Source: Vermamoeba vermiformis (taxonomy: Eukaryota). Taken from it: a DNA stretch of 30,420 nucleotides. Below are positions 2,984 to 29,139 of this stretch, piece after piece (the first letter of the stretch is position 1; each line of letters starts with the position of its first letter). The notes under the pieces were generated by a model, which was not told the DNA's origin, searched no databases, and saw nothing but the letters and a program-made list of their open reading frames with translations. The stretch covers positions 248,001 to 278,420 of the forward strand of contig JBEWZL010000200.1 in the NCBI GenBank assembly GCA_045837725.1, written 5' to 3'. Both the position numbers and the translations under genes were made by a program.

Positions 2984-3129
2984 ACGTCTCGTGTTAATTT
3001 CAAGCGCGATTCTCCACCAAGCAGCAAGCGTGGGCGGAGGTCTGTTTGATATTGGCCAATAGTGTATTAATAATGTCGTCATATTGTAAATAGTGTAAAT
3101 ACTTTTATTGTTGTTATTAAATGTACAAT

Positions 3130-6100
3130 TTACTTGTTCTTTTCAGGCGAGGACAGTGGTGGCAGCACAAACATGTCACCGCTCTTGCGTCGCGACGCTT
3201 CAAACTCTCTGACACTCTTGCGCACTGAGTCGTCGATCGAGTACTTCAATTGATGCACTATGTAGCTCAAGTCGATGTGATCGAAGGTCTTCAGTCCATC
3301 AAAGATTGCTTTCATTTCTTCCAACAATGTTTGGTGTCTATATTGAATGCGAATATTGGGCACATTCGTCTTGCTCAAATCTGATGGTGCAATTCGTAAG
3401 TAATGTGAATGTCGAGAAACTCGTTTCTCTTTAATTACGTACCATTGCCACCGATGCCAGGCAAATAATAGTTAGCGCCGAGCCAATTCATTTTCAAGCT
3501 CTGAATAGAGATTAGATGATATGCATAATAATTGTACATCTTACGTGTTCAAAGCCGGATTGCAGCACACTGTTGCGTCCTACTTCGCACAGATCTGCTG
3601 AACTCATCTTCCACACTTGTGCGGCAATGGCGTACTCTTCGATCAAGGGCTCGCGTGTGTAATGGAACTGCAGCGGATCATCTGCATTGCTATGGTTAAT
3701 GACTTGTCTCGCGTGTCAAGTGTCAAACACTGACCTGTTGAGAGTGACACATTGAGACCACGAGCGAAGAATTGCGGGAATGGATTCTTGGAATAATTGA
3801 GGAACAGCGAGTTGTTGCTGAGAGGACTCATTGCAATGCCTATTTGACACAAATAGAACCTAGGCACTAGTTAATATCACTCGAGTAATACAGTAATTAT
3901 ATGGTGCTACTCACAAGTACTGCAGCACGGGTGTCTTGCGCAGATTGATGCCGTGATTGATGCCATCAGCCAACAAGAACGCAGCGGCCAAATGATCTAA
4001 CTCGCCTGCCTCGCCACTGTGCGGTCTGAACTTGAAGGTTGCTAAATTAGGAAGTTAAGGAGAACGACATGGAGTGAAGGATATGCAGTGCTAGAGCGGT
4101 CATCAAGGATACAAAAACCACGTGCACGACGCAGCTGATTGAGCACCGTGAGATTCGAATAGAGATAATACAAGTAGTAGCTGTACGGTGGGTTGTGCGG
4201 CAAGTTCCACTCTTGTGGTGGCGGATACTTGCGCATCAAACGGTGCTCCAGTTTGCTCTCATCGTCCACACAGTCCACGCCCACTAAATAGCGCAAGAAG
4301 CGGTGCAGTTTGGGGTCTTTGGAGGGGTCAACTGTGACTTCGAACAGCGGCTCGAAAATATCTGCAAAGCTATGTTAGACACCTCACACAAGCAATCACG
4401 TGACGTACTTGACACCATGTCCTGCATGGTCTCGAAGTTGGGAATGCGATTCTTCTTGAATTCTTCGTACAGGCGCGGCACTTGCACCAACCAGCGCACG
4501 TGATCGGAGAACAAGTTGTTGTCGCAGACCCACGCCGCCAGTTTGGACCACTCATCGCGCTTGCGGCCATAAATCGAGACACGGTACTCAGCGAGGATGT
4601 ACTTGCTGTCCTTGAGCTCGTCCATCAATTCGTAGGTCATCTCCGCGAGATACCGGCCTTTGATGAGATTGTCGGTCTTGAGAAATATCTCGCGCAATCT
4701 CGATTCACCGATGGGATTGTATTTGAGATTGAACTTGTCGAAGCGGTGAAAGATGCGATTGTCTGCGTGCACGTCCAATCGATCGACGGTCAAATCATAG
4801 GCTGTCAGTCTGATACTTTCAAACACTTCTTGCAGCGTCAGGTGCTTGTTGTCGCGGAATATGACCACTTCCTAATTTAGAAATGACACGTGTTAATAAT
4901 GCCTCTAAGACGTGGACAGCACTTACATTGCCCTCGGACTTCAACTTCTTCTTAATGAACTTCAACAAGTGCTTCTGATTCATCGCACTGGACAAGTGAA
5001 TGTGCGTGTCAACTTTGCGAATGTTGTAAAAGTCACGATGCGCAACATTCTAAATGACACGTGTCAAATGATGTATCTTCCAATTACTCGGACTTACCAT
5101 TTGATGCAACTTCTCCTTGTCCTGATTGAGAGTCTTGTGCAGCACAAAACAGCTCTCGAGCAGGGCCAGTCGCTCGTAACAGTACGTCTTGTTGGGCCCT
5201 TCATTGGCCACGCGCAGCAGTGTGTTCAAGTCGCTGTAGTACTCGCGCAACTCGGCCACTTTGGCTTTGAATTGTGGTGCGTCGTTGTTCTCCATGGCTG
5301 CCGAGACTGTTAGCGTATTGACACGTGTCAAAGTGAGAACTGTACGCACCTGATTTTGACGGCCACACTTGTGCCACACCATCGATGAATTTGAACGCGA
5401 ACTGTTGACAGGTTAGCGATTGACACGTGTCAAAGAGCAGTTCTGCACGTACCTCAGAAGGCAACATCTCTTCCCTGGTGATTTCTTGACTGGCCAATAG
5501 CGTGACAGAGTTCGTGGTGTCAGAGGGCAGATCACGTGACTTGTAGTTGTGCGTCATCAGTGTCTCGTAGTCGTCTGTCACGTACTTGTGGCGCAGATTG
5601 ATCGCTGCCACGAGTGAGTTGAGCACTGTCAGCACTTCTTCGCGCTCAATAGGCTCGGCTGTATACGAACAGTACTGTAAGTATATGCGAGCGATAGTAT
5701 GTAATATTGTTGTACGTACTGTCCGGGGTAAGGATCAGCCGACGGAATTCAGGACGATTTAAATTCTGTTCGCGGGGTATGCCTTGAGACAACGACAACG
5801 AGTCTTTGAGTTTGAGCGTTATCTCTTGTTCCTAGCGCACTGGATGTTAGTGGAGTTCTGGTCGTTGAACTCAACTTGTGCCCAATAAAAATTTCGATTC
5901 ATTACAAAATACGCTTTTGAAATTCAATATTTTTTTGGCTGTATTTTGAAACTAATAGGAGAGAAGAAAACATAAATTGTCGTGTGGGGTGCACGGATTG
6001 GGCTCCAAAAAAATAGGTTCAAAGACCAAACATTATTTTTTAAATTACAATACCTTAGCTTGTTGGGCCTGGTAAGCATAAAATTCTTGGGTGTATTCGT

Positions 6101-6179
6101 ACGGATCAAAGTTCGGGTTGCTAAACGCCGACGCGTAGTCAGGCGGTGTAGCCCCTCCATTCGGCGGTGAGTTTTCCAT
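3130..6179 (-). CDS. AMPD: AMP deaminase, ~12 exons
   Basis: Family motifs include [70 protein letters not shown] and [11 protein letters not shown] at 6179 (MENSPPNGG), TAA at 3130. Introns join in phase. Confidence 0.97.
4042..4112 (-). other. U12-type (minor spliceosome) GT-AG intron in AMPD
   Basis: 5' site GTATCCTT, branch TCCTTAAC 10-15 nt before the AG. Removal gives in-frame [16 protein letters not shown]. Confidence 0.88.
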
Positions 6180-6747
6180 ATTATACGGTTGATGCTGTGG
6201 TCACGCTTTGAAAATGTAATTGAAATTGAATTTGCTCGAAGAGACAAAAATCGAACGAATGAAACAGAAATCTCGCAGGAAATTCAGGCGGAGCATGGTG
6301 CCCAGGCAAACGAACGATTAAACGACGCACCTGTAGTCGCATGAGGGGTAAAAAAAATGGATATGGGCGAGGTTTCCACCGAGCCAACGCAGGAAGAACT
6401 TATTGGTCGGAGAATCACTCGCCGTGATAATCAGAGTAGCCAGGAAACCACTGCGATGGTACTCCTAGGTCCTTGCACGTGATCAACAAGCGACAACACT
6501 GCTGCTACACAATGCGTTTGATGGCGGGTTAGCGGTGACCAGTTATTAGTGCGACAACTATTGTGGGAATAGAGAGATGCCCTTCAAATGCTGAGCGAAG
6601 GTTATCGCATGGACAACGAAAGGTATCACCAGTTGAACTGTCTTGTCGCAGCGGATCCAGATCTGGTCTCTACCAGGGCTACAGTTCAAGAAAAGTTTTC
6701 AACTCGTTTTTTTTCAGTTGTTATCTCTTTTTATTACAGTGCACAAC

Positions 6748-8447
6748 ATGGCTCTCTTCGTAGGCAAGTTATTTTCCTTTGCGGCGCTCTTTTGAACGTT
6801 ATTATTGCACATCAAACGAACTAAATCGGATTTGAAATTATTGAAACCTGAAATTACAGCTTGATCTTTGCCCTCCCGTGACATCAAAATTAGTCCTAAT
6901 AATTTTACTACAGGAAGATTACCAAGTGACGTTCGTCAACGAGAATTGGAAGATTTGTTTGATAAATACGGCAAGATCCTCCGTTGCGACATTAAGTCAA
7001 GTAGGTTAATACAATCAAGATTGTAGTCGTATTATATGTGATGGTTTATTTTTTCTTAACGCACTGCGTATTTTGCACTAAGCTTAGAATCTTCTGAAAA
7101 TAACTGAATTCAATTATTTATGCGTGCTTAAGCGTTAGATGGTTGCAATAATGCTAACAATACAATTTTAGGCTATGCCTTCGTCGAGTTTGAAGACAGC
7201 AGAGACGCTGAAGACGCCATCAAGGAGATGGACGGCTACCGTTTGAGCGGCCGTCCCATCGTCGTTGAATGGGCTAAGGGCAAGAGAAGAGGTGGTGAAT
7301 CGCGAGGTTAGTGCACATTAATATTCTCAGACCTAAATAGTGTGACTAAAATGATATCATTTAGCTGGAGGAGGCGATCGCGATGCATGCTTCAAGTGCG
7401 GCGAGAAGGGTCACTGGGCTCGTGAATGCCGCAAGTAAGTATCATAACAAAAAGTATATGACATTGAGACGAAGTATACTAACTGTTGCTTAGTGGTGGT
7501 GGCGGAAGCAGCAGCCGCAGCGGCCGTCGTCGTTCCAGATCCAGATCGAGATCAAGATCACGCAGAAGATCTTCAAGGTAGGCCTTTATTTTCATTTTTA
7601 TATGCTTAAATTCTTGAGTTATGCTTAAGAGCAATTTGATGGAAAATTGATTTTATTTTCAATTCTTACACTTACGACTGGATCCATTTATCCACATCAT
7701 CCATTGACTAGCTCAATTCTCGCTCGTGTCCGCGGTACTGCTGCGCTGTAGTTGCAACACTCGTGCTGGAGGCCAGGTGAAATTGCTGCGCCAAGTCGAG
7801 TTGTTAACGAGAGGTCCCGGTCACTGCTGTTCAGTTCTGAGAAATTGTGTCGTTGCGGTGCTGCTGACTAGAGGGGGTTCAGTGAACGGCCAGCTGATCA
7901 CGTGGTCACTCTGATGATCTTTGCTCTGATGGGGCTCTGCGCTGGTGCTGGTAGTCACTTCAGGTCAAGTTCAGTGAGCGGTGCTGTCCATGCCAAGGGT
8001 GCGACATCTCGGTCTTGTGTCCAGTTCTGGCGCTGTTGTCTCATTTCAGTCCTGTCTTTGCGCGTGTTTTGTGCCTTTTTTGGTAATGTCCCTAGAACTT
8101 TATCTAACTCTTTTTTTTCTTTAAAGATCGAGATCCAGAGATCGCAGAAGACACTCTCGCAGCAGGTAAGCCTCATATATTATTATATTAGTGTCTTTAC
8201 AGTCAGCTGATCATTTTCTCTACGTAGATCTCGTGATCGTCGCAGATCCAGATCTGGTGAGCGCAGAGACAAATCTCGCTCTCCTCCTCGCGATGAGAAG
8301 AGAGACAGATCTCGCGATCGATCTCGCGACAAATCTGCTGAGCGTGAACGTGACAGATCTCGCTCCAGATCCGCTGACAGACGTGAACCAGAGCCGCAAA
8401 CTAACGGCGATGATCACGGTAAGACTGATGCCCCCGCTGATGATTAA
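6748..8447 (+). CDS. SR splicing factor, RRM + CCHC zinc knuckle + RS domain (SRSF7/9G8/RSZ-like), 7 exons
   Basis: Exons 6748-6763, 6914-7000, 7172-7306, 7365-7434, 7494-7577, 8127-8165 and 8228-8447. They give [55 protein letters not shown] and RS repeats. Confidence 0.93.
6764..6913 (+). other. GC-AG intron (first intron of SR gene)
   Basis: G|GCAAGT donor restores the RNP2 motif LFVGRL. Confidence 0.85.
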
Positions 8448-8688
8448 ATCTGAGGCGTAAGGGCTGGATCAAGGGCTCCGTATTTCGGACCTTTGGTTTG
8501 GATTTTAATGTCCACCAACAATAACTCTTTTTGTAGAAAATAAACAAATAAATATCGTGGTTAATCCTATTAATTGAATGCTCTTTTCCCTTGTTGTCAT
8601 AATCCACCAGGGCCATCATACCAAAAGTGTCAAATGCCTCTTGAGCTCAAATGGGTCTCATTTCATTAATCTTAACGTTACAACTACA

Positions 8689-9531
8689 ATGCCTCTTAGT
8701 CCAAAAGTGTCAGTCACCACTGGAGGCAAGTAGATCTGTCAAACGAAACGTGCCAACAATTTGTTGCCGATAACAATTTGACACTTCAGTTTGCGTAATT
8801 TTATTAATTGTTATTTGGTTAAAGGAATCCATGGTCGATGCTGGTTCGCCAAGTAAGCGTCGTAGATATTTTTTGTATTTTTTGCGCAATTTTATTAATA
8901 AATGCAGCGATGATATCAAGAAGGGAGAGAAAATTTGGTGGAATGACCCAAGCATTACCAACTACCGCAAAGAGAAGGCTTTGACTGTAGATTTCCAGAC
9001 ATTCGCGACCTGGCCCAAAGACAAACAAGACAAGTTTATGGAACTCGCTTATCAAATCGATGAAAACACACTCGAAGGGTTCCCCGAGGGTGTTGAGCTC
9101 CCTGAAGACTTTGTCAAGGAGAATTACGTCAATCACTGCTGCGATGGCAACTGCTGGTTCGAAGGCGATGATTTGATCGTCGCTTCACGAGACATCGCGA
9201 AAGGCGAAGAAATCAAGTAAGAGAGCTTGTTTGACCTGACGCAGACCACTACTCACCTCTGCTGCTCAGCTACGATTATGCACTCACCGAGACCTCTTCG
9301 TACTTCTCGCTGGATTGCTTGGTAAGTCACCGCTCATTTGAAACATGACTGACACGTGTCAGTGTGGCAAGGCACTGTGTCGCAAGAGAGTGACAGGCGA
9401 TGATTGGAAGGTAAGTGTCGTCCTTGACTGCTAGCACATACTGACAGCAACAGTTGCCCGAACTCCAAGCCCGTTATGGCAATCACTTCTTGCCGTACAT
9501 TCTCAAGATGATTGAAGCGCACAAGCAGTAA
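8689..9531 (+). CDS. Small SET + post-SET domain protein (putative lysine methyltransferase), 6 exons
   Basis: Spliced product contains GIHGRCWFANDDIKKGEKI, YVNHCCDGNC, RDIAKGEEINYDY and post-SET CLCGKALCRKRVTGDDWKLPELQARYGNHFLPY. Confidence 0.9.
8726..8824 (+). other. GC-AG intron (first intron of SET gene)
   Basis: G|GCAAGT donor puts GIHGRCWFA in frame. The GT 4 nt downstream gives the wrong frame. Confidence 0.75.
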
Positions 9532-9629
9532 ATTGAAGCAGAGCCGCGGCAAATATCCAAATGTGACCAGTAATAATAGTCCAATAAATAAGTGTTTGAA
9601 GTATTTACAAGCTGTACAAGTGAGTGGCA

Positions 9630-11859
9630 CTACAGCGGCACACCATCCACGTCGTCGTCGTCATCCTCTGCTGGCACCACTGTCTTGCGCTCAGCACTCG
9701 AAGTGAGTGAGGGAGTGTGACTAGTCTCACCGACGAACACGCCGCGCAATTGATCGAGCAGATCTGGTGGATAGAGCGACCAGTCCAGCCAGATCTTCAA
9801 TACCCGCATTATTGGGTCTTTGAAGTTCTGCGCCATAATTCTGCTCGTGAATGTCTTGTACTTGGCGTGCAGGGCCTCAAAGATCACGGGCAATGTCTCT
9901 TGAAATCTGACACGTGTCGTTAGCTCTGACGCACTACTAGCGTGCTATTGGCGGTACTTACCCAGCACGGAACTGACTGCCGTGTTGTATGCCCGCATTG
10001 CTGTTGTACAAGATGTCTGAGATGAGCCACAGTCGTGCAATGGCGAGTACTGGTGACAGCTCATTGGTCTGCACCAGCATTGACTCGCTCAACACGCGCA
10101 CGAGTTCTGCAGCACTGTCCGCACGTTCAACTGCAAATATCATTGCATCTCTGATCGAGACACGCGACAGATTCAAGTGTTCGAGCAGTGACTTCCATTC
10201 ACTCAAATCACGTGGCAGAAGTGGCTTGCTGCGGAACTTTTTCATGAATGCAGACCAGTCGAATTGGAAGGGCTCAGGCACGGGTGGTGGTACCCACAGC
10301 GGACCTCCAACGAACATGACGAACGGTGTTGTGCGCCACGACTCGAGCGTGTCACCTTGGAGCAGCGAATACACGCGCCATCGATAGTAGAGGTTGTCAT
10401 TGGTGCCGTTCTGAAACAAGAAAGACAGCTTGGGGTGCTGTGAATGACGCTCGACAAGTTGTTGCTGCAGCGATCGTATTAATACTAAGTATATATATAT
10501 CTCACGCGCGGATGTACGCACCTCAAACTGCTGTCCATGCGTCACTACGAGCTGCGCCAATCGATCAGCGGTCTCGCGCTTCGACTGGTCACTCGGAGGC
10601 ACCACAATCAGCTGCGGCGGTGCTTGCACTGCACTCGCTGTGCCTTGTGCCCAAGGAGGAGGTGCTGCAACATCTGCAGGACATTAGTATGATGTGCCTA
10701 TTGTACAATCAATGTACGCACTGAGCGAGGGAGGTGGTGCAAAGTTGTGACTGGGTGCAGACTGGTGTTTGGGTGCACGACCCCAGCCCAGTCGCGGCAC
10801 TTGTCCCATAATCTCTTTGTCGCGCATTGCTTCCATCGCTCGCTCTGCTTCAGCGCGTGTGGCAAATTGAACAAATCCACTGTTGCGCGCCTTCTTCTTC
10901 TCCTCTTCAGTCTTGGGCCACAACACTTTGACACTCACAACTGTGCCGTAGGGACTGAACTCGCGGCGTAGTATCTGTTATATATGGTTGAGGTTCAGGC
11001 AATGCAATCGAACAAGCAGAAATGACCGTACCTCTTCCGTGACCTGCAACGAGAGACTTCCAAGAAAAATATTGGTGCTGGTGGCATCAGGCAGTTCATC
11101 CTCCGTGCTGTGTTCTATTCTGTTGCCCGTAGGACCCTTCGCGAACTTCCTGCGCTCTTTTTCTTCTTCTTGTCTGTTACAAAACTGTTCAGTATTGAGA
11201 GTCAACAACACTGGCATAGTGACGAGCTAACTTTTTCAACTCCTCCATAAAAGCATCAATCGTGCGCTTCTTGCCCGTAATAGGAACATTATCGGTGGTT
11301 GGCTTGGGCACTTCACGCTTAGCTATCTCTGCATCCAGTTTGTACTCGCGATTGTCAACCGCTTGTTGCACGGAGAGACCTTTCTCAGTCTGAACAATTG
11401 TTTCTCCGCGCACGAACATTTTGCCTTTAGAATCACTAGCAGAAAATGATTGCACGAATTCTTTGTACACAGCATCTGCCTCTTCTTGTTCTCTCTAATT
11501 GACAACAGAGGAAAAAAAATATGAATATTCGTCGTAAAATTGAATAACATGAATAATTGCTCCGTGTATCACCAAATACGTGTTGCTCGCGGCTTTTCAA
11601 TATTGTGATTTTTTTGAACTAAGCGAGGGCCGGTGGATTACCTTCTTTTTCTTTTCAGCTTCCTCTTTTTGCTTTTGAAAAGGAGATTTGATTACTTTAC
11701 TAACATTTTTCTTGACCTCATTTATATCAGTGGTCTAAAGGCGGTGAGTGGACTTATACCGAATAACGAGAAGAAAGATCTCCGTACCTTGGATGTGGGC
11801 GGTGCTAACTTATCCTTATCGAGCCCATAGGGCAACCGCCTATTAATATTGTCGTCCAT
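9630..11859 (-). CDS. U2SURP: U2 snRNP-associated SURP motif protein (SR140): RRM + SURP + CID, ~8 exons
   Basis: Motifs include [27 protein letters not shown] ([32 protein letters not shown]), SURP ([13 protein letters not shown]), CID ([13 protein letters not shown]) and terminal DDVDGVPL. Confidence 0.93.
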
Positions 11860-12027
11860 AGGTGGACTTTATGCAATAACTGTCTCACAGACGGCAAAAT
11901 GAAACTCATCGCTTTTGGGCGTTTTTTCTTCGGAGAATATTTGCGAAGAATTTTTGAGGCTCGGTTTTGGTCATCCTCGTCTGTCCTTGCTTTTCTCATT
12001 CGTAGCTCCATTGTGCACAGTAGAAAC

Positions 12028-12940
12028 ATGGTCTCTTTGCGACTTCGTAAACGTTTAGCTGCCAGCGTCTTGAAATGCGGCAAGAAGAAGGTTTGGTTAG
12101 ATCCTAACGAGACTTCTGAGATCGAGATGGCCAACTCTCGTAAGTATTTACTATTTACTTCCTTATAATAATTACAAATACTAATAATATAGTACCCGCA
12201 TTATTTGCTGTTGATATTTTTTTAGGGTTATTTATTGGCTTGCAATTTTCAAAATAATAATAATAATAATTAAATTATCAGGTCAACAAATCCGCAAGTT
12301 AGTCAAGGACGGTTTGATCATCCGTAAGCCCAACAAGATTCACTCGCGTGCTCGCGTTCGTGCCAGAACCGAGGCCAAGCGAAAGGGCAGACACATGGGT
12401 TTTGGTAAGAGAAAGGGTACCAAGGAAGCCAGAATGCCCACCAAGGTCCTCTGGATCCGCAGAATGCGTGTTTTGCGCAGAATGTTGAAGAAATACCGTG
12501 CCCAAAAGAAGATCGACAAATTCTTGTGAGTATCAAAGATCGATATTTTAATAACCGGATCAGCCAGAAAAAAAAACCAAAATTAGGAAGCAACTCAATA
12601 TACAAATGATCGACACACAAATTTAATTGTGGCATGATATTCTACCTCCATAATTTTAGAACCGAATCTAATCTCGTATCTGATCAGGTACCACGAGTTG
12701 TACTTGAAGGTCAAGGGTAACGTCTTCAAGAACAAGCGTGTTTTGATGGAACACATCTTCGAAGCCAAGGCTGAAAAGCAACGTAACAAGAACCTCGAAG
12801 AGCAAGCCGCTGCTCACCGTTTGAAGAACCAAGCCAGACGTGAGAGACGTTCAAAGAAGGTCGCTGAGCGCAGAAAGTTGGGTGTTGCTGAAGAAGCTGA
12901 GGACAAGCCCCAAGACACTAAGGCCCAAGCCAAGAAATAA
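12028..12940 (+). CDS. RPL19: 60S ribosomal protein L19 (eL19), 3 exons
   Basis: [41 protein letters not shown] and [19 protein letters not shown]. Introns at 12140-12281 and 12526-12687. Confidence 0.98.
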
Positions 12941-13083
12941 GTCGCTTCTCTGTCAAATAATAAAACCAAAACCTTCATTAAAAACTACTGTGCTCCTCTT
13001 TGATTAAAAGAATAGTTTTATTATTAATTACAACTAATAGCGCCGCAATATAGTACTAGCTATTGATTTCTATTAGGATGGGC

Positions 13084-13597
13084 TTAGACGGCAGCTCTGA
13101 TGATTTGCAACAAAGCAGATCCGACAACAACGAACAAGAAGAAACCAATCACAACAGGACCGACTGCGAGGGAGCTTTCTTTCTTCTGCAATACATAAAT
13201 ATGCATTAATAAGCGTTACTAAGCAATGCAGATGAGGATCAAACAACTTACGGTGCTGCCAGAGGAGACGTTTCCTCTTTTTTCAATATTTTGATGGAAT
13301 TTCTCGCTCTTCTTTCGCAACTTGCGTACTTGAGGTGACTATGCAATAACGAGATGAATTAATAAGCTAATTCATGTTGGGCAAGAAAATTCAAAATAAT
13401 TATGAAAAACTAAAAAAAACTGAAATAATTATTTGTATTATCGTTAACAGTTGTAAGAGTATGCATTAGTTGTAGTGTTGTATTTGCGAAACAGAATTAC
13501 AGTTAATATTGCTGAAATGATCTATTTTCAAAATATTATTTGCTAGCCCACTGCAGCAGCTCACTGCAGGCCATGTAACAGCAATACTTACAGGCAT
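13084..13597 (-). CDS. SERP1: RAMP4/SERP1 stress-associated ER tail-anchored protein, 64 aa, 3 exons (not in ORF track)
   Basis: Exons 13597-13592, 13338-13252 and 13185-13084 give MPSPQVRKLRKKSEKFHQNIEKRGNVSSGSTKKESSLAVGPVVIGFFLFVVVGSALLQIIRAAV. Confidence 0.92.
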
Positions 13598-13825
13598 GTT
13601 GTTATAGTGCGGAGACTAGTGTGTTATTGCTATTAATAATACTGCACGAAATAACTGTTCCGTGACGTGGAGCCAGAAATATCCCTGCTGGTCAACATCG
13701 GTCATTATCAATTCATCGCTGAATACGAGCACATATATATAGGGAATATATGTTCGTATTCATTTAGGACCTATTGCTGCGGTCCATTTTGTTGGTGTTG
13801 ACCTCGCGATTGACTCGATCTAGAC

Positions 13826-16800
13826 ATGGCAGACAAAGAGACATTGCCCGTAGATTATACTAAATATAGAGGCCTATCATCGCGCAGAGCTTATAAGTAC
13901 GCTTGTCTTGCATTTATTGTTTGAGCTATTGCAGATCCGCGATCCAGCCGATAACACCGTTGGCCTTTTTAATCAATTTACGACACTCAGCTATTAATAA
14001 TAATACTATTATAGGACCCTACGAGGTGCTATTAGAAAGCTGCTTCGCGATGAGCAAGCTAAATACAAGAATTATAGTCGTATATTTGCTGGCTATTGGT
14101 TCTCAAGGCCGATTACATGGCTCTATATACTCACGTGTGGTCTATTGCTCACTTATTACTTTTTCGCCGATTCCGCTGAGCAGATCCGCACGATCGTCGA
14201 GTTTTGCTTAGTGTCAACTTTCTTCTTACTGAATTCACTGCTCACGTACTTCAACAAGCTCGCACTAGTACGTATAGTAATATAATACATCTTCTAGTCT
14301 CACTGTGCATTCCAGTGTGTCGGTCGTATTCGTCGTGCACGCGCGCATTTGAAAGCATTCAAACCTGAACGAGATCCGCTGCTCAGTATGTGCATGCCTT
14401 AGACGGTATTAATCCTTATTAATGTCCTGCAGCGATGAGTCAGGACGAGATGGCACGTCAGGCCTCCAACAGTGCGTGCGACTATCAACGCGTGCGTCGT
14501 GACGGGCAGTGGCAATTGTTGCCAGCAGCGCTCTTGGTCGAGGGAGATCTCGTGCTGCTCGCTGTCAATCAACACGCGCCAGCTCGTGTCACTTCACTGC
14601 ACTACTCGGGTACGTACCGCACGTGTGTGACACCTGTCAAGCACTGACACCTGTCAGACGTGGAGCTCCAAGCAGGTGAGCTCGTGACCGTGGAGCCCTT
14701 TCAAATGCCGTCCTCCCCGCCCAGTGCTGATCACGTGGGTCGCGATTGGTCACCGTGGCGTGTGCTCGAGACATCCATTCTCGGCACTCTCACGCAGACC
14801 TTTGCAGCTGGGCCTGATCTCCCGCTCGAGCTCATCCCTCCAGCCCTGTCACGTGCACTCTGGGTGTGTGGTCTGACCTCACTCGCCGTGTCAGTCATCA
14901 ACTCTGTCGTGCGAGTCGCGGTGCTCGAACATCAGCGCGCACTGTGGCCCTGGTTGTTCATGCAGCGCAACGCATTCTTGTTGTTGCCTATTTTGGGCAT
15001 CACCGTGCCAGCACTCGAGTGGATCATCACGTGCTTGCAGAATGCGCGGCTGTGGGCCTTGTTTCACACGCAGCAATTGACACCTGTCACTGCGCGTACT
15101 GCACAAGATGAAGAGCACGTGCTCAAAATCGATCACGAGCCCAGCGCCAAGTACGAAGAGGTGCCTGGAGGTATGTCCAAATAAGGCAATAACTGTCAGT
15201 GCTAACTGAGCTACAGCCCTGGTTAAGGACTACTTCGATCACTTCATGCGCGGTGACAGCAGCGTGCTATCTCGCTACTCGAGATTGATACACGTGCTCG
15301 GACACGCCACTACACTGTGCGTGATTGACAAAGAAGGCATATTGTCCGAGACTATTCCTTATCCGGAAAAGCTTTGCGTGTTCAACGACGAAGAGAGCGT
15401 GGTGCTGGCACTCGAGCGACAGCAGCGGAATTCAATTCGCTTCGTGTCTGAGAACTGGGAAGACTATCTCCCGTAAGATCTCCGCTGTCACTGCCACGTG
15501 TCACTCACGTATCTATATTTAGTGCCCTCAAGCCGCTCGGACTGAATGCCATGCTCAATTCGAGCTGCAAATCACGTGCGCGTCAACATCGCGATCGGGC
15601 CCTGGACTCGCCGAGTCACGTGTTCGATCACGTGCCATTCATCAGCGGTCAGTGTCACTCTGTGCAGTGCTCTGTGTGCTAATGGTTTCTAAAAATAGAA
15701 CACAACAAGTGCCTGTATCTCCTGGGTCGCGAGATTGGCTTCACAGAGCAGGTGATCGAGAACTACATTCATCTGAACGAGACGCACATCTATCAGACAC
15801 AGGCTGTGCATCACTTGCCAGGCCAGGGACTCAATGGTGGCAACAGCATTGACAGTCAGTATCAGTCCATCATTGCCTTATTAGTACAGGACATCGCCTC
15901 CGAGTCTTTGCAGTTGTTGTCGCGAGGCAGTCCGGAGTTCGTGCTTGACGTCTGTCAACGTAAGTGTCACGTGTCTCTCGTGCAAGTCAGTGATTGACAG
16001 GTGTCACACAGAGTACTGGAACGGCGAGTCCCTCAACCGCATGAACGATCAGATCCGCACGTCCATCACACGCCTGTACACGCAGTGGGGCGTCAATGTC
16101 GACTATCATTGCATCTGTTTCTCGTGCGTCACCTGTCACTACGCCCATCGCTGGCACTAATGTCTAATTATAGTTACAAGCCGATCGATCGTCGCTTCAA
16201 GATGTTGTTCAAAGAGCGCGGTGTGCTGCTGTCGAGTGAAATTGGCCAATCAGCAGTCGTGGATGAGAGCGAGAGCAGTGGCACCACCATTGGCACGCGC
16301 AAGAGCTCCGAGATCAAGAAGCGGAACAAAAAGCTAAAAATAGAAGCGATTAAGAACAAGCGCAAAGAAAAGAACAAAAAAGGCACTTCGAGCTCGTTCG
16401 ATGTGTTCGGACTGAAAAAGAAGTCACGTGACAAGAAGAAAAAAGACCGCGCCAGTGCCGCGGAGAGTCGCACTGGTGACGCGAGTGAGCCCGATGAGCC
16501 ACGTGATCAAGCTAATAATAGCACTGCCAGTCCACGTGACAGTGTCAGTGAGGGCCCTGATGAGCGCGAGGGTCCCGAGAGTGAGTCACGTGATCACGTG
16601 CGCGACACTGAACAACAGTCACGTGATCAGCAAGAGAAGAGTGCCAGCGACAGTGTGCCACCAGACCACGTGACCGAGCGGCACGATGACAGTGCCAGCA
16701 GTCCACGTGCTCTGCCGCGCATTGACGAACAAGACGAGAGCAGCGAGCACGTGATCGACGCCGAGACCAGTGCGGAACAACCCATGGATGCGAGTGCGGA

Positions 16801-18675
16801 ACAACTCATGGAGGCCAGTGCGTCACGTGTGATCGACGAGTCGTCACGTGTGGAGACGGAATTCACTGAACGCGAAGACGAGTCCGATCTGACCGCGAGC
16901 TACAAACAGGCGCTGTACGACCAGACCCTGCTCGGCATGGCGGCAGTGCGCTACTTGCCGCGCGACAGTGTGCCGCAGCTGATTGAAGAGCTGATGGACG
17001 CGTCGATTCGCTTCGTGTACTTCTCGCGCGTGAATGAACAGCGCACCAAACTGTTCGCGGACAAATTGGGCCTCGAGACTGATTGGAATTGCTGCATCTC
17101 ACTGCAAGAGCACGTGATTCAACCAGGGCCCAGCTCGGAGATTGCTCCGACCTCACCAGGGTCTGCCATCGAGAAGTTGCCGCACGGGATTGAAAAGATC
17201 AAGCGCCATATTAGGGAAGTGGACAATGTGCCACTGCTCGTCAAGATGTTCTCTGACGCCACACCGCAGAACACGATGGAAATGGTAATGTGCCACCTGC
17301 CACCACTCGCACTCACTCACTGACACGTGTCACAGATTGACATCTTGCAGCAGAACGGCGAGGTCTGTGTCGTGCTCGGCAGTGCACTGCAGTTGCAGCA
17401 CCAGCACGCGTTCATGGCTGCAGGCAAGTCTATTTTTAGCACCGCGGGAGCACGTGACTAACTTGGTGCCAGATTTGTCCTTCTCACTCATGCCCGAGCG
17501 GGTCAGTGACTGTTCGGGAGATACAGAGCCAGATCAGACACCACGTGATCCACTGGTAGACACGTCACGTGACTTGGAAGATCGCGCGAGAGATCAGACC
17601 TCGCCATTCACCTACTCGTAAGTGCGCTGTTGACATGTGACAGGTGTCATTGACCGCTCTCCGTGCAGGTCAGTGTCGAGCACGCAGTTCAAAGAACACA
17701 AGACGAGCGGAACATTAGCGGTAGATCTCAATTCGCTGCCCTGCGATCTCATCTTCAAGAGTGACACCAATCTGTTTGACATTTACGAATTATTCCGCGC
17801 TGGTCGGCACTTGCTGTCCAACACCACGCAGGCACTGCTGCTATTATTAGGCTCACATCTCGCGCTGCACTATCTCATGCTCATCTCCGCGCTGGTGTAC
17901 GTGCCCCCAGTGCTGAATGGCATACACTTGCTGTGGCTGCTCGTGGTCGTCACACCGCTGCTGGCACTCAGTCTCTTGTGGGCACCGCTCGAGCCCAAAA
18001 TCATGAAACAAATTGCGCCGAAAAACCTCCCGATCAAAACGCGACGATTGTTCCGCTATCTCGGATATTTTGTGGCACGTGCCATCCCCTCGGTGCTGGT
18101 CTGCGTCGTGATCTATATTTGGGTGCTGCAACTGACCTGGACGACATTTGACACGCGTGTCATTTACGGCACCGCACTGCCCGCGGACTTTGATTGGTCA
18201 AATTATTTTCAAGCGGTGCACTTTTCACAGAACGTGACGCTGTACGCCTTTGTGCTATATTTGGGTATGTGCCACCACTCTTAATTCGGCAAAGCTAATT
18301 CTGTGGCAGTGGTCACCTCGCTCACGTGTCACCATCGAAATCTCAGTCTAAAAGTGGTCAATCCGTTCATGAACCGACCCTGGGTGATCGGTGTGCCCAT
18401 CACGTACGTACCAGCACTTGCCTAATTGGGAAATACTGACAATTCCCTACAGACTGGTGCTTCAAACAGCGTTCTTTGTGATCTCGTTGCGCGGAGATTT
18501 ATCGTTGCTGTCGCAGATCACGTGGCCAGTGTGGCTGATCATCTTTGGCTGGCTGCCGCTATTAATAGCCACACACGAGGGCATCAAGCGCATCGATCTC
18601 AATGACTATATTAGGCAACAGACGATCATGAAGCTCGAGTTCAATACCAAATTAGGCATGCACTCACCGATCTAG
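13826..18675 (+). CDS. TMEM94: TMEM94-family P-type-ATPase-like membrane protein, ~15 exons
   Basis: RDGQWQLLPAALLVEGDLV, CVIDKEGILS, IRFVYFS..KLGLETDWNCCISL, KLPHGIEKIKRHIREVDNVPLLV and C-terminal KLEFNTKLGMHSPI. Confidence 0.93.
16769..16822 (+). repeat. 24-nt coding tandem repeat (SAEQPMDA SAEQLMEA SA) within the TMEM94 low-complexity insert
   Basis: agtgcggaacaacccatggatgcg followed by agtgcggaacaactcatggaggcc. Confidence 0.8.
17424..17472 (+). other. GC-AG intron in TMEM94
   Basis: G|GCAAGT...CTAAC...CCAG. Removal joins QNGEVCVVLGSAL..AFMAA to DLSFSLMPE in frame. Confidence 0.8.
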
Positions 18676-19004
18676 CTCCCTCTGATGGCACAGGTATATT
18701 TGCAGTATTTCCTAATTCGTCAATGCCGGTACTTCATTTGCAAGAGCTGGCACTGACTACAGCAGTCGAATGTATCGCGTCCATTGCTGTACAAACTGTA
18801 ATAAAGCAGTCGAGTCCGTGGAGCACGTGACTGGAAATTTCCAGATTGAATCACGTGCCTGACAGCGACTGTTTGAGAATTCAACTGGGCATTAATTTCG
18901 TACCAATCGATTGAACGGACCACGATATGTATATATAGTACTCTAGCGAATATAATTTGTAATTATTCTTGTAATTATTTGTTTGTATTATTTGTAATTT
19001 AACA

Positions 19005-20979
19005 ATGGAGGTTGCGGATGTGCCCGAAGATCTGGTAAGACAATTTAATTATTAATTTTTACATGATAGAAAATTCGTTGCGACGGCATTAGCACTAATG
19101 AATGTAAAACGCAATTTCGAAAAGCGCATCTGAAATTAAATATGAATTTTCTTTGCCGAGCAGGACGGCGCTGCAGAACTGCGCGAATTATCTCCGACAT
19201 TAGAAGAGATCATATTGTCGTCAGAACTACACACCTATGCGAACGAAGAAGAGCTGTGGCAAGAGTTGCAGCACTTTATTCGCAAGATCTACTCCGAGAC
19301 GTACAACGCGACGGGCAGTCAGAGCGATGAAATACTGAACATACCCTTCGAGCGAGTGTATCCTTAGTCCCTAGTCTCTGTACATATCTCACCACTCGGT
19401 CGAGTTATTTCCTTAACAGGCACTTGCCATATTTAGACATTGGCTGGTGCACGCGCTGTGCGTGGTGAATGCAGACTACTTGCTGCGCGTGTTGGAGAAA
19501 GAGGCCTATCGCTACTTGAAGTTCTTGCAGCACCAGCTCTTGGAGTCCATGTCCTGCCTGCCTGACAGTACGTCCAAATTTAGCAATCGCCGTTCAGTGA
19601 ATTGACACGTGTCACAGATGTCGAGTCCAAGGCCGTGTCCAGCGTGTTCTTGAAGTTGATTCTGATCACTTTTGAGAACCTCATGTGCACCAACGACATC
19701 TTCAACGGCGTGCTGGTGAGACTGTCACGTGATGCTGTGCCGTTCACTGAACTGTTAACTAACTACCTTTCCTTATTTAGACACTACTCCACAATTGCTA
19801 TCTGTTCCGCTTCAAGTTTTCGTTTGCAGATCTGAACAAAGGTCTATTTTTAGAACTGATTTGGAACAACGACGAGTCACGTGACAAAGCGAGCAACAAA
19901 TCCATCAAGAGCTACGTCGATCGATCGAAGAGTTTGATATTTGCACAGCGCAGTCACAGCGAGGCAGTCAGCGAGGAGTTGACGCAAGCCGATCAGAATT
20001 TCTTCGAATTAGGACAACAATTTCTCAATTTTGAAGCCGTGCTCGACGAGTTCAAAGTCACGTGGCCTGTGACCAAACAGCGCATTCTGACTTATCACGT
20101 GATCCACCCTGATGATTTGCAGCTCATCGTGCAGGACATTAGAACGCAGCTGCAAACCACCGCAGAGCATTTGCAGTTCAGTGACGAGCACGTGGACAGC
20201 GAGGACGGCGAATTCAGTGAACCAATCTCCGCGGAGATCCCGATCAGACCACGTGTCAAGAGGTCACTGAATCGATCAGCACTGAATCTGACGACGAGAC
20301 CACAGTTATTCCGCTCAATCAGTCACGTGTGCGGCGGACCAATCACAACGACCATTCAGTGAATGCACTGCGCGACAAACTGCGGAACAAATATCGCGCC
20401 AAGAAACAAGCGGAGACTGAACAGCATCACGTGCCTGACGCGCAGTCAGAACACAGTACGACACTGTGCTGTCAACTGAAGACCTCTAACAACATTTCCT
20501 TATTAGGCAATGACTCGCGATCCATCGACGAGTTGGTGAACTTCATCAACCAAGAAAAGAAGAAAAAGAAAAAGAAAAAGTCCAAAAAAGGAAACCCGTC
20601 CTCCACTCCAGCCTCAGATGTGCCACCAGCACTGACCAATCACGTGACAAGCACAGCTGCAAACACTGATCACGTGCCAGTCAAATCACTCGCGCAATTA
20701 AATGGTCTCGGAGCCTATCCGAGGTTCTGGGAAGAGGACCACGAGTCACGTGATCCTGAACTCGACAAATTAGTCGAAGAATTCCGGCAAAGACTCGCAG
20801 ACCACCAGCTAAAAATAGAAAAACAGGAACCTGCAAAGATGAAAATAGAGCCACGAGCCTTTGAACGCCTGGCCGACATTTGTCGGAACAGTTCTAAAAA
20901 TAGATTTCAGAGCCCTGGTGAGCGCACTGCACCCGCCAATCAGGGCACTCATCGCTCAAAAAGGAAAAAGAAAAAATAA
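19005..20979 (+). CDS. FAM193-like protein, 5 exons, one apparent 1-nt frameshift at ~20340
   Basis: N-terminal LWQELQHFIRKIY..LVHALCVVNADYLLRVLEKEA and C-terminal LRDKLRNKY, RSIDELVNFIN and DPELDKLVEEFRQRL. These resemble FAM193 conserved blocks, recognised from memory. Confidence 0.65.
19358..19436 (+). other. U12-type GT-AG intron in FAM193-like gene
   Basis: 5' site GTATCCTT, branch TTTCCTTAAC (19408-19417), AG at 19435-19436. Splicing gives in-frame PFERVHWLVHAL. Confidence 0.88.
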
Positions 20980-21138
20980 ACGTTGTTGTCTGTCATCGCA
21001 AGTGTTGAACACCACCCTTGAGAATAGGACGGGTTGAATATAGCACTTGTAGTGGAAATATTTTGTTATTATTATTGTTGTAACCATAGTGTAGTAATTG
21101 CCTAGTCTAGTGAAATAGAAAGTTAATACAGATCTCAA

Positions 21139-21712
21139 ATGACTAACGCACAAGAACGATTTGAATTATTGGATGATGAGAACACTATCAAGTGAGTTTT
21201 ATTAATTTAATAGTATATGTGTGTGTTATTTATTAGCGAAATATTCTTTTATTTTATTAAAGCCATAATTAATTACAGAATATTTGCTTAAATTCTTATT
21301 ACATAATTATCGCTTTTCTATGGTATTAAATATTATTTCAATGCCGATAATAATATTAAAATCATTTATCAGAGTCTCGTTCGAAAAAGACACAAAAATT
21401 CCGAATGCAGTCACCTTCACCATCAGAAAAGAAGATCATACGCTAGGCAATCTACTACGAATGTGCGTATAATGTATTTTTTGCTATCGATCGTACTAAG
21501 ATAACCCCAGGCAATTGCTGCGAGATCCTGCGGTCAGTTTTGCCGCGTACAAAGTGCCCCATCCACTCGAGCCACAAATTGTTGTCAAAGTGCAGACCAA
21601 AGAGAATAAGGACCCTGTTATTACTACCACCACTGCGCTCACTGCACTCGAAAATGAATTCGCTGAGATGCGTTCCAAACTCGAAGAACAACTGCAACGT
21701 CACCGCCAATAA
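21139..21712 (+). CDS. RPB11: RNA polymerase II subunit RPB11, 3 exons
   Basis: [57 protein letters not shown]. Confidence 0.95.
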
Positions 21713-21799
21713 GAGCTAAAAATAGTCCGTTTGTACTTTCCTAATTTGTAAATAAATTGCGCAAAGCTATCATACAGGGTGATTTATGGTTGACAGGTG

Positions 21800-23083
21800 T
21801 CACTGTGCAGGTCGACAGTTGACGCGGTGCTGCGGCCAGTGTTCGAGCTGATGTTCGCGACAGCAGTACTTGACAGCACGACACTGCGAACAGCGGAACA
21901 ATTGATAGGACTTGGAGCACACCACGCACTGCTGCTCGAGGTCGATGTTGAACCAGTTCTCGACTTGACGCACTTCACTGAACAGCTTGCCAATGTACGG
22001 ATGTGGATGCAGCACCCCGTCACTCACGCGCCACGAGTGCCAGCGCTGCAAGAACTGCGCGACTTCGAGGCCGTAGTTGGCTTTGTTGCTCACATTGCGC
22101 AACTTGCTGGCAATGTCGCGTCGCACAAAGCTGTAGTGATACATCTCTACCTCCCCGCGCTCAAACAGGCGGTGGCGCATCAGCTGTTCAGGTACTGCAG
22201 TGCGGCGTGTGGGATCGACAATCGCGGGGTGTGGGTGTGCGAGCAGAATGGGCGCGTCAGCACGACAGACGCAGATGAAGGGCACGGCATTGATCTCATC
22301 GGGGGGCCAGTACTCGTAGTGCGCAGTCTTGAAGAAGGTGCGCATGCGACAGGTGGTGCTGGTCCAGTGATTGAGCAGTATCTGTTGCTTGGCGTAGCGC
22401 AGTTCCTCGCTCTTGTAGCACTCGTCTGCGTCCAGACTCATGAAGTGCGTGCACCCTGCGGCCAGACACCGCTGACGACCTGCAGTGTGACACGTGTCAA
22501 ACATCAACCTCTGTCATGCGCTATTGTTGACGCACTCACCTAGCTCGCGCTTGCTCGTCTCGTTCATGAATTGTTCGCCAATGGTCTCCACAGAGCCGCC
22601 CACCTCTTCGGGGCTATGAAGAGCTGTCAGTGGCACTTTGCCGCGCTCGTGGCTGCTAGTACGTACCGCGCTCGTGGGGAAACAATTGCGAGTCTCTCAG
22701 TCACGGAGAAGGATCGCGGTGTGTAGTGGACCAGTTCGTCGATCAGACCTCTCTTCTTGAGATCAACGAGCAACTCTTCTAAGTGTGGATTGGCTTGGTT
22801 GCCAAAATTAGAAATAGTTTGATATACCACCACAATGTAGTCCACGTCATTGCGAATGGAGAGAATAGAGGCTTCTAACAGTTCTTCGGAATCGAAGACT
22901 AATTAAATAATTAGTCAATAAATTAATTTAATTAGCTAACATCATAGACGTAATCAACTATAAGGAACTGCGTAGAAAAAAATAAAATAAAAAAACAGGG
23001 ACTTGTTTGAATTTCCGGGCCTGGATCGTGTTTGACATTTAAATCGCTTGTTACGTACGGTTATAACAAGCCCCTAGGCGCAT
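21800..23083 (-). CDS. GT-A fold (GT2-like) glycosyltransferase domain fused to C-terminal MYND zinc finger, 4 exons
   Basis: MRLGACYNLFDSEELLEASILSIRNDVDYIVVVYQ..ETSKRELGRQRCLAAGCTHFMSLDADECY (DxD motif)..MYHYSFVR. C-terminus CVVC..CSQCRAVKYCCREHQLEHWPQHRVNC is a MYND finger. Confidence 0.8.
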
Positions 23084-23307
23084 TGTACTAGTACTAGACT
23101 GCACCTCCATAGCATGTGCTGTGTTATTCAGCTTGACAACTAAAGGTCAACAGAACAATTGTTGTTTTTGAGAATTCTCTGGATGCTGCTGCACGCCACA
23201 CCATTAATAATAAGCACCGCTGTAGCGTGGAGCGAATGACACGTCAGACATAGGCAAAGCACAGTAGCTAGATTTAAAGAGTATTTATTCAGGTAGGTCA
23301 CGCATTT

Positions 23308-24035
23308 TTAGTTCTTCTTCTTGTGAGAGACACCAACAGTTCTGCCTCTGCGACCAGTGGTCTTGGTGTGTTGACCGCGCACACGGACACCCCACCAGTG
23401 GCGCATACCACGGTGGCAACGGATCTTCTTCAAACGTTCAATATCTTCACGCAACTTGGTGTCGACGGCGTTGGCAACAACTTGACTGTAAGTACCGTCA
23501 CGGTGATCCTTTTGTCTGTTCAAGAACCAGTTGGGGATCTTGTAGTCCTTGGGGTTTTGGATGATCTTGACGATGCGATCAATTTCATCAGCCTTCAATT
23601 CACCAGCACTGAAATTAAAATTGTTTAATTACTTGCTAATAAATATTATATGTATATAAGATGTGATAATAAGCGGGTTACAATAAATTAATATTATCAA
23701 TAATTAATAAATTAAAAATTGATAATGGGCGCACTTACCGCTTGTTTAAATCGACCTCAGCCTTCTTGCAAACAATGTTGGCAAATCGGCGACCAATACC
23801 CTTAACGGCGGTCAAGGCATACATAATTTTTTGTCTGCCATCGATGTTGGAGTTCAAAATACGGAGAATGTGTTGGAACTCCTTCTCGTCGTTGTAAATA
23901 ACCAAAGAAGATGACTAAATAATAATAATTATTAATTATTCTACGTTGTGGATTAAATCTACATCTTCTTTCTACGCTATATTCGTGAATGCTGTAATAT
24001 TGGCTAGCGTAATAATAATTATTGATCCATACCAT
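23308..24035 (-). CDS. RPS18: 40S ribosomal protein S18 (uS13), 3 coding exons, first is ATG only
   Basis: [43 protein letters not shown] and [30 protein letters not shown]. Confidence 0.98.
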
Positions 24036-24230
24036 TTTATAAATGCGTGAGGCTGAGTTGTGCTCCTTGGACAAAATGCGAGGGAAGAAAAGGAAAGAAG
24101 CCAAACCGAGTGAGGTACTTTTCCTCCCTGAATTTTTTTGGGAGGAAAATTGATGTTTGTCATGACTTAATCTGTGCAATTAAGTCCCGCTATTGGATCG
24201 CGAATAACAATCGAAGGCAACACAACTGAA

Positions 24231-25339: not shown

Positions 25340-26011
25340 CTACTGCGTGCCATCGCGATTGTCCATGTACACCAAGCTCTGTGTGATGGCATTCACAGGA
25401 CTCGCTTTGACACGTGTCAAATTGTGAATGTGACGGCGGATATTCGCCTCTAACTGCACGGTGCGCTCTCTGAACTGCGTGCCCTCATCGCTGTGCAGTA
25501 TATTCGATCGTTCGAGCACTACGCGCCCTGGTCTAGCGCGCATCTTGCGAGAGAGCAGCACTGCGTTCTGTTTGAACTTGAGCTCGCGCAGTGTGTGATG
25601 CAATTGACGTGCAATAGTGCTGGGCTCGCACAAAATGTTGGCATCGAGCAGTTGTTGGGGTAGCGGTCGTTTATCACTCGTAAGTAATTTTTCGATCAGA
25701 TGCGCCACAGCGTCAAACGGCATCCGCGTGCCTAGAGCCCAAATTTCTTCTGCGAAGTGAATATCGTTCTTAGAATCACTCTTTTCTTCTCCAAGTGATG
25801 AAGCAGGTTTCGAAATCCGTTCAGAAAATTCGAAATTATTTGTTGCATCCAGCCGAGTATCTTGGAGCGTAGTATTGTTGTCTGATACGCATGATATTAA
25901 TAATTGTTTAATTAATCTTTACATATACGCGAGAAATTACTTACTATTAAACACGGGACCTAATTTCAAAGTCGGAATTGCAACACGATCTTGCAGTACT
26001 AGCGCTGTCAT
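25340..26011 (-). CDS. RPEL-repeat (G-actin-binding-like) protein, 2 exons
   Basis: LIEKLLTSDKRPLPQQLLDANIL and LSRKMRARPGRVVLERSNIL match the RPEL pattern L..K...RP....L...NIL. ATG at 26011 with an in-phase GTAAGT..CAG intron. Confidence 0.72.
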
Positions 26012-29057: not shown

Positions 29058-29139
29058 TGGCATGATGCGAATAAATAAGGTTGTATTATTGTTAAATAGG
29101 ACCATAGACTATGTACAATGTGAATACAATTGCGCGCTG

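Follow-up and report, generated by a model that had tools for sequence, protein, structure and literature searches.

A 12-nucleotide palindrome concentrated in the short introns of Vermamoeba vermiformis: a putative recognition site overlapping predicted branch-site and acceptor signals

A 12-nucleotide (nt) palindrome, TGACA-SS-TGTCA (where S is C or G), recurs in the short introns of unrelated genes in a 30,420-nt stretch of Vermamoeba vermiformis DNA (assembly GCA_045837725.1, contig JBEWZL010000200.1, positions 248,001 to 278,420, forward strand). We call this whole stretch the window and give all positions in its coordinates. The observation is real, strongly non-random, and reproducible. 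Specifically, the form TGACACGTGTCA is present eight times in the window versus 0.01 expected, and none of 100 dinucleotide-preserving shuffles reaches eight. With any centre allowed, TGACANNTGTCA is present 15 times versus 0.08 expected. Eleven of these 15 copies reside in introns. The best explanation is that TGACA-SS-TGTCA is a discrete, actively maintained palindrome of transcribed DNA in this lineage and not a decayed repeat. Our favored account of its maintenance, which we hold tentatively and at less than even confidence, is that the palindrome is a putative dimer-type recognition site, retained in micro-introns at positions where it also acts as a branch/acceptor signal.

The architecture of the element is rigid. 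Among the 15 TGACANNTGTCA copies, the two central bases are CG in eight and CC/GG in seven; GC centres and centres bearing A or T do not occur. Inverted TGACA..TGTCA pairs are found 15 times at a spacing of 2 and at most once at every other spacing within 0–15, and everted and direct arrangements of TGACA show no enrichment in the window. Measured against the perfect 12-mer, eight sequences carry no mismatch, ten carry one (in seven, the centre C/G alternative), and five carry two. The last number compares with approximately 2 expected by chance, so hardly any halo of decayed copies surrounds the motif. The original prediction for this DNA listed eight perfect copies, and we find all eight in place. 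It likewise located four CC/GG copies correctly (14628, 14645, 15995, and 17638), while overlooking those at 15078, 21791, and 28972. Two near-variants that it placed at 4885 and 9909 are real but start one base earlier, at 4884 (TGACACGTGTTA) and 9908 (TGACACGTGTCG); together with a sequence at 15492, these are the one-mismatch variants.

Outside the 12 positions, the copies have little in common. Around 26 oriented copies, flank identity averages 27% with a maximum of 50%, which rules out an extended repeat family and agrees with the earlier statement that the remainder of each intron is unrelated. The exception is a pair of neighboring introns in the AMP deaminase gene (AMPD; 5298–5349 and 5402–5452) that, by eye, are alike over their whole length. 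CpG decay was also rejected as the origin of the motif: the CpG observed/expected ratio is approximately 1 throughout the window, and no centre variants with TG or CA exist. An Rfam search of the window returned no match. A full-text literature search for the exact 12-mer matched only two unrelated Ebola virus papers, and literature searches for a genic CACGTG excess or for palindromic branch sites produced nothing relevant among the records listed.

The copies are distributed unevenly among classes of DNA. In addition to the 11 intronic copies, three lie in coding exons (15078, 25408, and 28972) and one overlies a stop codon (21791). Gene models were built with our own exon-chaining script and corrected where outside evidence existed; the intron catalogue, the product of our simple gene finder, includes some wrong models and misses most A+T-rich genes. 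By these models, the 11 intronic copies fall in 2,374 nt of introns (4.6 per kb), four fall in 13,611 nt of exons, and none falls in the remaining 14,435 nt. Comparison of introns with all other DNA (11 in 2,374 nt versus 4 in 28,046 nt) yields an odds ratio of 33 (P=6.5e-10). The four non-intronic copies compare with approximately 0.003 expected, by our own arithmetic from the class lengths. Motif-bearing introns make up 10 of the 40 modelled in the window, or 13 of the 40 when one-mismatch variants are included. Consistent with the claim that seven of the eight perfect copies lie in short introns, the models place seven in introns of 41–60 nt and the eighth (25408) in an open frame. The original prediction named two findings that would speak against it, namely the lack of positional bias within introns genome-wide and an equal density in other unconstrained DNA. 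In the window, positional bias is present and the density in other DNA is zero.

The motif arrangement is reproducible in independent contigs. We scanned metagenome contigs for two motif copies 80–110 nt apart, which yielded 70 loci, the majority of them tandem or bacterial-looking repeats without relation to the window. Loci of the window type are L003 (the same as L052), L031, L032, and L049, and, less clearly, L038, L051 (the same as L058), and L054. The first four have no nucleotide BLAST match to the window, and they contain short introns in which the motif lies 1–12 nt ahead of the AG; instances include ..TTAATTAA(motif)G as well as ..TTTGGT(motif)ACAG. Duplicate metagenome contigs are at least 99.7% identical and are therefore uninformative regarding conservation.

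Placement within introns and the predicted branch site

To describe placement, we pooled 20 intronic copies, the 11 from the window and 9 from metagenome introns. In the window, the tails between the motif end and the intron end measure 1, 1, 3, 3, 5, 5, 8, 18, 19, 19, and 21 nt. Placement toward the 3' end departs from uniform both in the window (P=0.004, mean) and in the pool with the 9 metagenome copies (P=0.008). Two classes are apparent: 13 of the 20 copies are acceptor-proximal, with tails of 1–12 nt, and 7 are upstream, with tails of 18–37 nt. The 3' bias described in the original prediction is thus real, but placement is bimodal, with window tails of 1–8 nt versus 18–21 nt. Several copies had been said to end on or just before the acceptor; indeed, four run directly into it (TGTCA-G).

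The acceptor-proximal copies resemble branch sites. In 12 of the 13, T or C precedes TGAC, which produces the YTRAY branch consensus (Y, pyrimidine; R, purine), and the same 12 introns contain no other YTRAY 8–22 nt from the AG. The motif A lies 10–21 nt from the AG. In motif-less introns, YTRAY is present within 8–22 nt in 33 of 51, and the chosen sites lie at 10–21 nt, mostly 11–14. The sole exception among the 13 has A at −1 and a TTAAT nearby. The flanks are asymmetric: Y is found at −1 in 12 of 13 copies, and the mirror-image R is found at +1 in 4 of 13 (P=0.004). Because Y-TGAC is the only branch-site-like sequence at a normal branch distance in 12 of these 13 introns, an exclusivity that is partly geometric given that a 12-mer near the acceptor occupies the branch-site space, the motif probably supplies the branch point there, that is, in about two thirds of the intronic copies.

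Upstream copies behave differently. In the window, each is followed by a further candidate: CTAAC at 11 or 12 nt from the AG, TTGAC at 15 nt, or another copy of the motif. Most simply, Y-TGAC would act as the branch site when the copy is acceptor-proximal but not when it lies upstream. The original proposal that YTGAC is the branch point is consequently supported for about two thirds of the intronic copies and is improbable for the 7 of 20 that lie upstream. Its extension, a self-complementary branch/acceptor module, does not define the element: in addition to the upstream copies, 4 of 15 copies are non-intronic, and three quarters of introns lack the motif. Put in terms of what a branch signal should be, the motif has YTRAY with its A at the usual distance; it has neither a fixed 3' position in all copies nor a presence in most introns. 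A branch-point reading accounts for neither the dyad symmetry nor the restricted centre, and it leaves the upstream and coding copies unexplained.

Fused branch/acceptor signals exist elsewhere. Giardia introns have a fused branch-point/acceptor motif. In Trichomonas, the 3' end of short introns carries a fused 12-nt branch/acceptor block, ACTAACACAYAG (PMC13548475). Like that block, the window motif is a conserved 12 nt at the 3' end of short introns, in which a YTRAC branch site is followed by AC and the sequence runs into the AG. Unlike that block, which in the tabulated Type A introns is fixed in position and not palindromic, the window motif is a perfect palindrome with a variable tail of 1–12 nt, it occupies only 10 of 40 introns, and it also appears upstream of other branch sites and in exons. 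Irimia and Roy report that the 3' consensus is strong where introns are few and that signals are degenerate in lineages whose introns are very short (PMC2483917). The window runs opposite to this trend: it is intron-dense, its introns are approximately 50 nt long, and about a quarter of them carry a 12-nt palindrome.

A putative dimer-type site and the competing explanations

The non-intronic copies (4 of 15), together with the 7 of 20 intronic copies that precede a separate branch site or are distant from the AG, argue that the motif does not serve splicing alone. The mechanism that we propose has three parts. First, in approximately two thirds of the intronic copies, the element would overlie the branch-to-acceptor segment of a ~50-nt intron, with the left arm, Y-TGAC, as the branch site and the right arm stopping 1–12 nt before the AG or in it. 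Intron anatomy makes this part fairly firm. Second, and less securely, the defining property of the element would not be splicing but its perfect dyad symmetry around a fixed 2-nt, S-S-only centre. Such features most likely reflect the binding of duplex DNA by a sequence-specific protein that acts as a dimer, of either the TALE-homeodomain or the E-box kind. Third, the site may survive in micro-introns mainly where it coincides with splicing signals or lies just upstream of them; elsewhere in such introns, a strong TGAC plus TCAG would compete with the real signals, and exonic copies would be limited by coding.

Two families of known sites invite comparison. TALE (MEIS/PREP/TGIF) dimer sites of the form TGACAG-S-TGTCA have the same half-sites in inverted order and the same 12-bp length. 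The published MEIS3 consensus is TGACAGGTGTCA (PMC5449588), to which the CC/GG form (seven copies) is identical, and the TGIF1 homeodomain was crystallized on TGACAGCTGTCA, with chains A and B as the biological unit (PMC6158717). In contrast to TALE sites, the principal centre here is CG, and the copies are found within introns and exons instead of promoter-like DNA. In short, the inverted TGACA half-sites with a 2-bp centre and the match to a published consensus are present, and the promoter or enhancer location is not. The second family comprises the class B/C E-boxes of HES/E(spl)-type basic helix–loop–helix proteins (such as CGGCACGTGCCA), which are likewise 12-bp palindromes around CACGTG; a HES5 consensus is also on record (PMC5449588). 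The window motif differs from these E-boxes in having A/T, not G/C, at positions 3 and 10, and nearly half of the copies carry CACCTG. The sequence TGGCACGTGCCA occurs once in the window, at 18073.

Four observations weigh against a dimer-type site. No copies are present in the 14,435 nt outside the gene models, although a transcription factor site would be expected in promoters; this DNA is only 41% G+C and includes genes that the models missed. Copies are spread across most of the G+C-rich genes, in as many as five or six introns per gene, which is unusual for regulator sites. The best TALE site reported for animals, with centre GC, accounts for 0 of the 15 copies in the window. Finally, all four upstream window copies sit 0–5 nt before a real branch site or a second copy, and not anywhere in the free intron, a branch-adjacent placement that hints at a role at the RNA level. 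The suggestion in the original prediction of a dimeric transcription factor site of the TALE type therefore gains from the rigid spacing, the S-S centre, and the MEIS3 match, and loses from the empty 14.4 kb.

Two facts, namely that no copies lie outside genes and that the upstream copies are placed close to branch sites, keep alive an alternative confined to RNA, which we regard as possible but rather unlikely. The notion is that Y-UGACAC is an extended branch site complementary to U2, with a self-complementary right arm, and that copies pair between neighboring introns or within two-copy introns, thereby masking the branch site and acceptor and regulating splicing or retention. U2 small nuclear RNA, GUGUAGUA, would pair with Y-UGAC-AC. 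Concentration in introns, the branch-proximal position, and asymmetric flanks that fit YTRAY all accord with this proposal, as does the presence of copies in consecutive introns of one gene, for example in four AMPD introns. The CC and GG forms, complementary as RNA, both occur within the P-type-ATPase-like gene, and in the Trichomonas 3' motif AC likewise follows the branch site. Introns with two copies fold into strong hairpins (z −1.4 and −2.8). However, strong folds are restricted to such introns: motif introns in general (n=18, mean z −0.41) are no more structured, relative to shuffles, than motif-less introns (n=48, mean z −0.02; Mann-Whitney P=0.14), and a loopless 12-mer cannot fold on itself. 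The idea of a hairpin element in the introns was rejected on these grounds. Moreover, a splicing element leaves the S-S-only centre and the coding copies unexplained, the CC and GG forms have no preferred orientation relative to the gene, and 30 of the 40 window introns splice without the motif.

Less probable, and in our judgment unlikely, is that the 12-mer is a functionless by-product of a lineage-specific enrichment of CACGTG in gene bodies, caused by E-box selection or by a repair or mutation bias. In this scenario, an intronic CACGTG core fuses with YTGAC on its left and with the acceptor (TCAG or TCACAG) on its right, signals that happen to be reverse complements, as CTGAC is of GTCAG. 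The enrichment itself is evident. No hexamer is more frequent in the window than CACGTG (70 copies, 48 of them in modelled exons). In the G+C-rich genes, it is found 60 times versus 11 expected, and CATGTG/CACATG is depleted (2 versus 8.2 expected). CACGTG density is 3.5 per kb in exons, 6.3 per kb in introns, and 0.5 per kb elsewhere, and CACGTG and the 12-mer have one genic distribution in common. What speaks against a by-product is the immediate context. Exonic CACGTG is flanked by T..A (TCACGTGA 10 times versus ACACGTGT once), whereas intronic CACGTG is flanked by A..T (ACACGTGT 9 times), and each of the 11 A-CACGTG-T sites either matches the 12-mer completely or differs from it by one or two mismatches. 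Seven of the 15 copies carry CACCTG/CAGGTG in place of CACGTG, and upstream and coding copies retain the full palindrome with no need of a branch site or acceptor. Given the flank contrast between exons and introns, and given that nearly half of the 12-mers carry CACCTG, the 12-mer is more than an extension of the CACGTG bias.

Introners, known from Micromonas, Aureococcus, and fungi, are similar over the whole intron. The idea raised in the original prediction, that the motif is the footprint of an old intron-generating element, which we took to be a mobile one (introner-like or made of fused terminal repeats), can draw on a sequence common to introns of unrelated genes, on the look-alike AMPD pair, on a 17-nt tandem duplication of the motif in intron 14610–14657, and on centre C/G transversions that may resemble hairpin-resolved excision footprints, but it is very improbable given that only 12 nt are common between introns, the flanks are unrelated, hardly any degenerate copies exist, intron ends lack terminal repeats and target duplications, and AMPD is collinear with a transcript-derived protein across its junctions, with no sign of intronized coding sequence.

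Individual copies, gene models, and neighboring sequence

The copies, the introns or frames that hold them, and the basis for each intron are collected in Table 1. By Pfam and homology, the genes of the window encode AMP deaminase, a P-type-ATPase-like protein, proteins with Surp, zf-MYND, and GLTSCR1 domains, RPL19, and RPS18.

Table 1. Copies and one-mismatch variants of the palindrome in the window (tail, distance from motif end to intron end)
Feature	Position	Strand	Copy and context	Basis
AMPD intron, 48 nt	5050..5097	-	motif 5055-5066, tail 5 nt to AG (..TTTGACACGTGTCATTTAG); motif A 14 nt from AG	spliced per P0020
AMPD intron, 52 nt	5298..5349	-	motif 5319-5330 central, tail 21; separate CTAAC 12 nt from AG	P0020
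AMPD intron, 51 nt	5402..5452	-	motif 5421-5432 central, tail 19; separate CTAAC 11 nt from AG	P0020
AMPD intron, 55 nt	4872..4926	-	one-mismatch variant 4884-4895 (TAACACGTGTCA, gene orientation)	P0020
Intron, 41 nt	9322..9362	+	motif 9350-9361 abuts acceptor, giving 14-nt palindrome CTGACACGTGTCAG; motif A 10 nt from AG	model only
Intron, 55 nt, end ..GCTAACGACACGTGTCAG	9907..9961	-	one-mismatch variant 9908-9919, CTAAC just upstream	RNA contig
Intron, 48 nt	14610..14657	+	CC-form copies at 14628-14639 and at 14645-14656, separated by 5 nt; second ends in acceptor	
Intron, 50 nt	15473..15522	+	one-mismatch variant TGCCACGTGTCA at 15492-15503	model
Intron, 52 nt	15960..16011	+	GG-form 15995-16006, tail 5 nt to AG (..TTGACAGGTGTCACACAG)	homologue alignments break here
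Intron, 51 nt, donor GTAATG	17285..17335	+	motif 17321-17332, tail 3 nt	homologue alignments span with gap
Intron, 51 nt	17618..17668	+	GG-form 17638-17649 central, tail 19; TTGAC next, 15 nt from AG	model
Intron, 50 nt	19568..19617	+	motif 19603-19614, tail 3 nt to AG (..TTGACACGTGTCACAG)	model only
zf-MYND gene intron, 60 nt	22480..22539	-	motif 22488-22499, tail 8 nt to AG	model
Coding exon, P-type-ATPase-like gene	15078..15089		CC-form copy, read ..TTG ACA CCT GTC ACT..	
Open frame 25340-25918 (minus strand)	25408..25419		perfect copy; frame reads through	
Long exon, GLTSCR1-domain gene	28972..28983		CC-form copy	
zf-MYND open frame stop	21791..21802		GG-form copy; on the minus strand, its TGA forms the stop codon	

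Alignment to the transcript-derived protein P0020 confirms five AMPD introns. Specifically, splicing AMPD without 5402–5452, 5298–5349, 5050–5097, 4872–4926, and 4362–4408 produces a stop-free 427-aa protein that matches P0020 at 413 of 428 alignment columns with one gap; the acceptor of intron 5298–5349 was corrected from 5307 to 5298 on this basis. Other AMPD relatives are approximately 70% identical, fungi and plants alike. For RNA evidence, three raw runs and one contig run were aligned to 4700–24699, and only the best-supported joints were considered. An RNA contig skips intron 9907–9961 exactly. Depth over the motif genes is below 1, and among the best-supported joints listed, 9907–9961 is the sole motif-variant intron confirmed. 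When the ATPase-like protein is aligned to its homologues, the match continues on either side of 15960–16011 and of 17285–17335. The remaining motif introns are predicted from GT..AG ends or splice consensus and from frame continuity.

Introns of the G+C-rich genes are 41–60 nt long, with donors GTAAGT, GTACGT, or GTGCGT and with CTAAC, CTAAT, CTGAC, or TTGAC 10–14 nt ahead of the AG. RPL19 and RPS18 are A+T-rich and highly expressed, and their introns are 130–162 nt long, A+T-rich, and motif-free. The two gene classes stand side by side: A+T-rich ribosomal protein genes at 12000–13400 and 23300–24100, and G+C-rich genes at 14400–21000. The latter are 52–56% G+C and barely expressed in the mapped RNA runs.

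Some individual loci have further features. In the two-copy intron 14610–14657, the predicted fold pairs the two copies. The first copy is followed directly by an AG that constitutes an alternative acceptor 16 nt upstream, the use of which would shift the frame. An A+T-rich metagenome locus (L043:2030–2290) contains an intron of approximately 220 nt with two perfect copies, symmetric T..A flanks, and extra TGACA half-sites, far from the acceptor; judged from its flanking translation, the gene encodes an IP3/ryanodine-receptor-like channel.

CACGTG also forms local patterns. At 4100–5550, 14100–20800, and 29000–29700, it is mostly (A/G)TCACGTGA(C/T). Two reading frames are used, giving His-Val and Ser-Arg-Asp/Val. 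The hexamer is concentrated in protein regions of low complexity and does not occur in RPL19 and RPS18, both highly expressed. A 36-bp tandem repeat at 29274–29375 (2.8 copies, 98% matches) lies inside open frame 29140–30057 on the minus strand, and each unit bears CTGACAGGCACGTGATTGG, an E-box beside a CCAAT-like word and a TGACAG half-site.

Regarding the AMPD region and its relatives, one relative that is 86% identical (P0021) has an uninterrupted 741-aa product on a 5.3-kb contig. This relative could be devoid of these introns, or its contig could be a transcript. The RNA runs X21–X23, filed under the same species label, are 95–99% alike to the window at 4700–24699 with many fixed differences and are probably from another strain. 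The window also contains a segmental duplication: 1–195 resembles 3073–3267 (98% identity), and 206–284 resembles 3364–3446 (84%). Thus, the left end is a second copy of the 3' part of AMPD, one intron included. The intron at 3381–3442 (copy 212–280) begins with GTACGTAAT and contains ATTACTTAC. Its donor region is therefore repeated in inverted form, and an intron of the GTAAGT.. type can be read on the opposite strand as well.

Implications for splicing and regulatory codes

Intron-poor parasites are known to have strong and extended motifs at the 3' ends of their introns. Here, introns of approximately 50 nt keep a perfect palindrome over the branch/acceptor region. A stronger version of the dimer-site proposal, which we consider unlikely, is that the palindrome is read twice: on DNA as the site of a dimeric regulator, and on pre-mRNA as the branch point together with the stretch leading to the acceptor. 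Such double reading would make the splicing of an intron depend on whether the site is occupied, or on pairing between copies in neighboring introns. If true, about a quarter of introns would carry an overlapping code that extends across the lineage, and a palindrome read on both DNA and RNA would provide a clear natural example of regulatory and splicing codes that overlap. If, alternatively, the motif functions exclusively in RNA, it would represent a new kind of self-complementary branch-site element. Because a single short motif is present in many copies, the system is experimentally tractable, and knowledge of the motif could improve intron prediction in this lineage.

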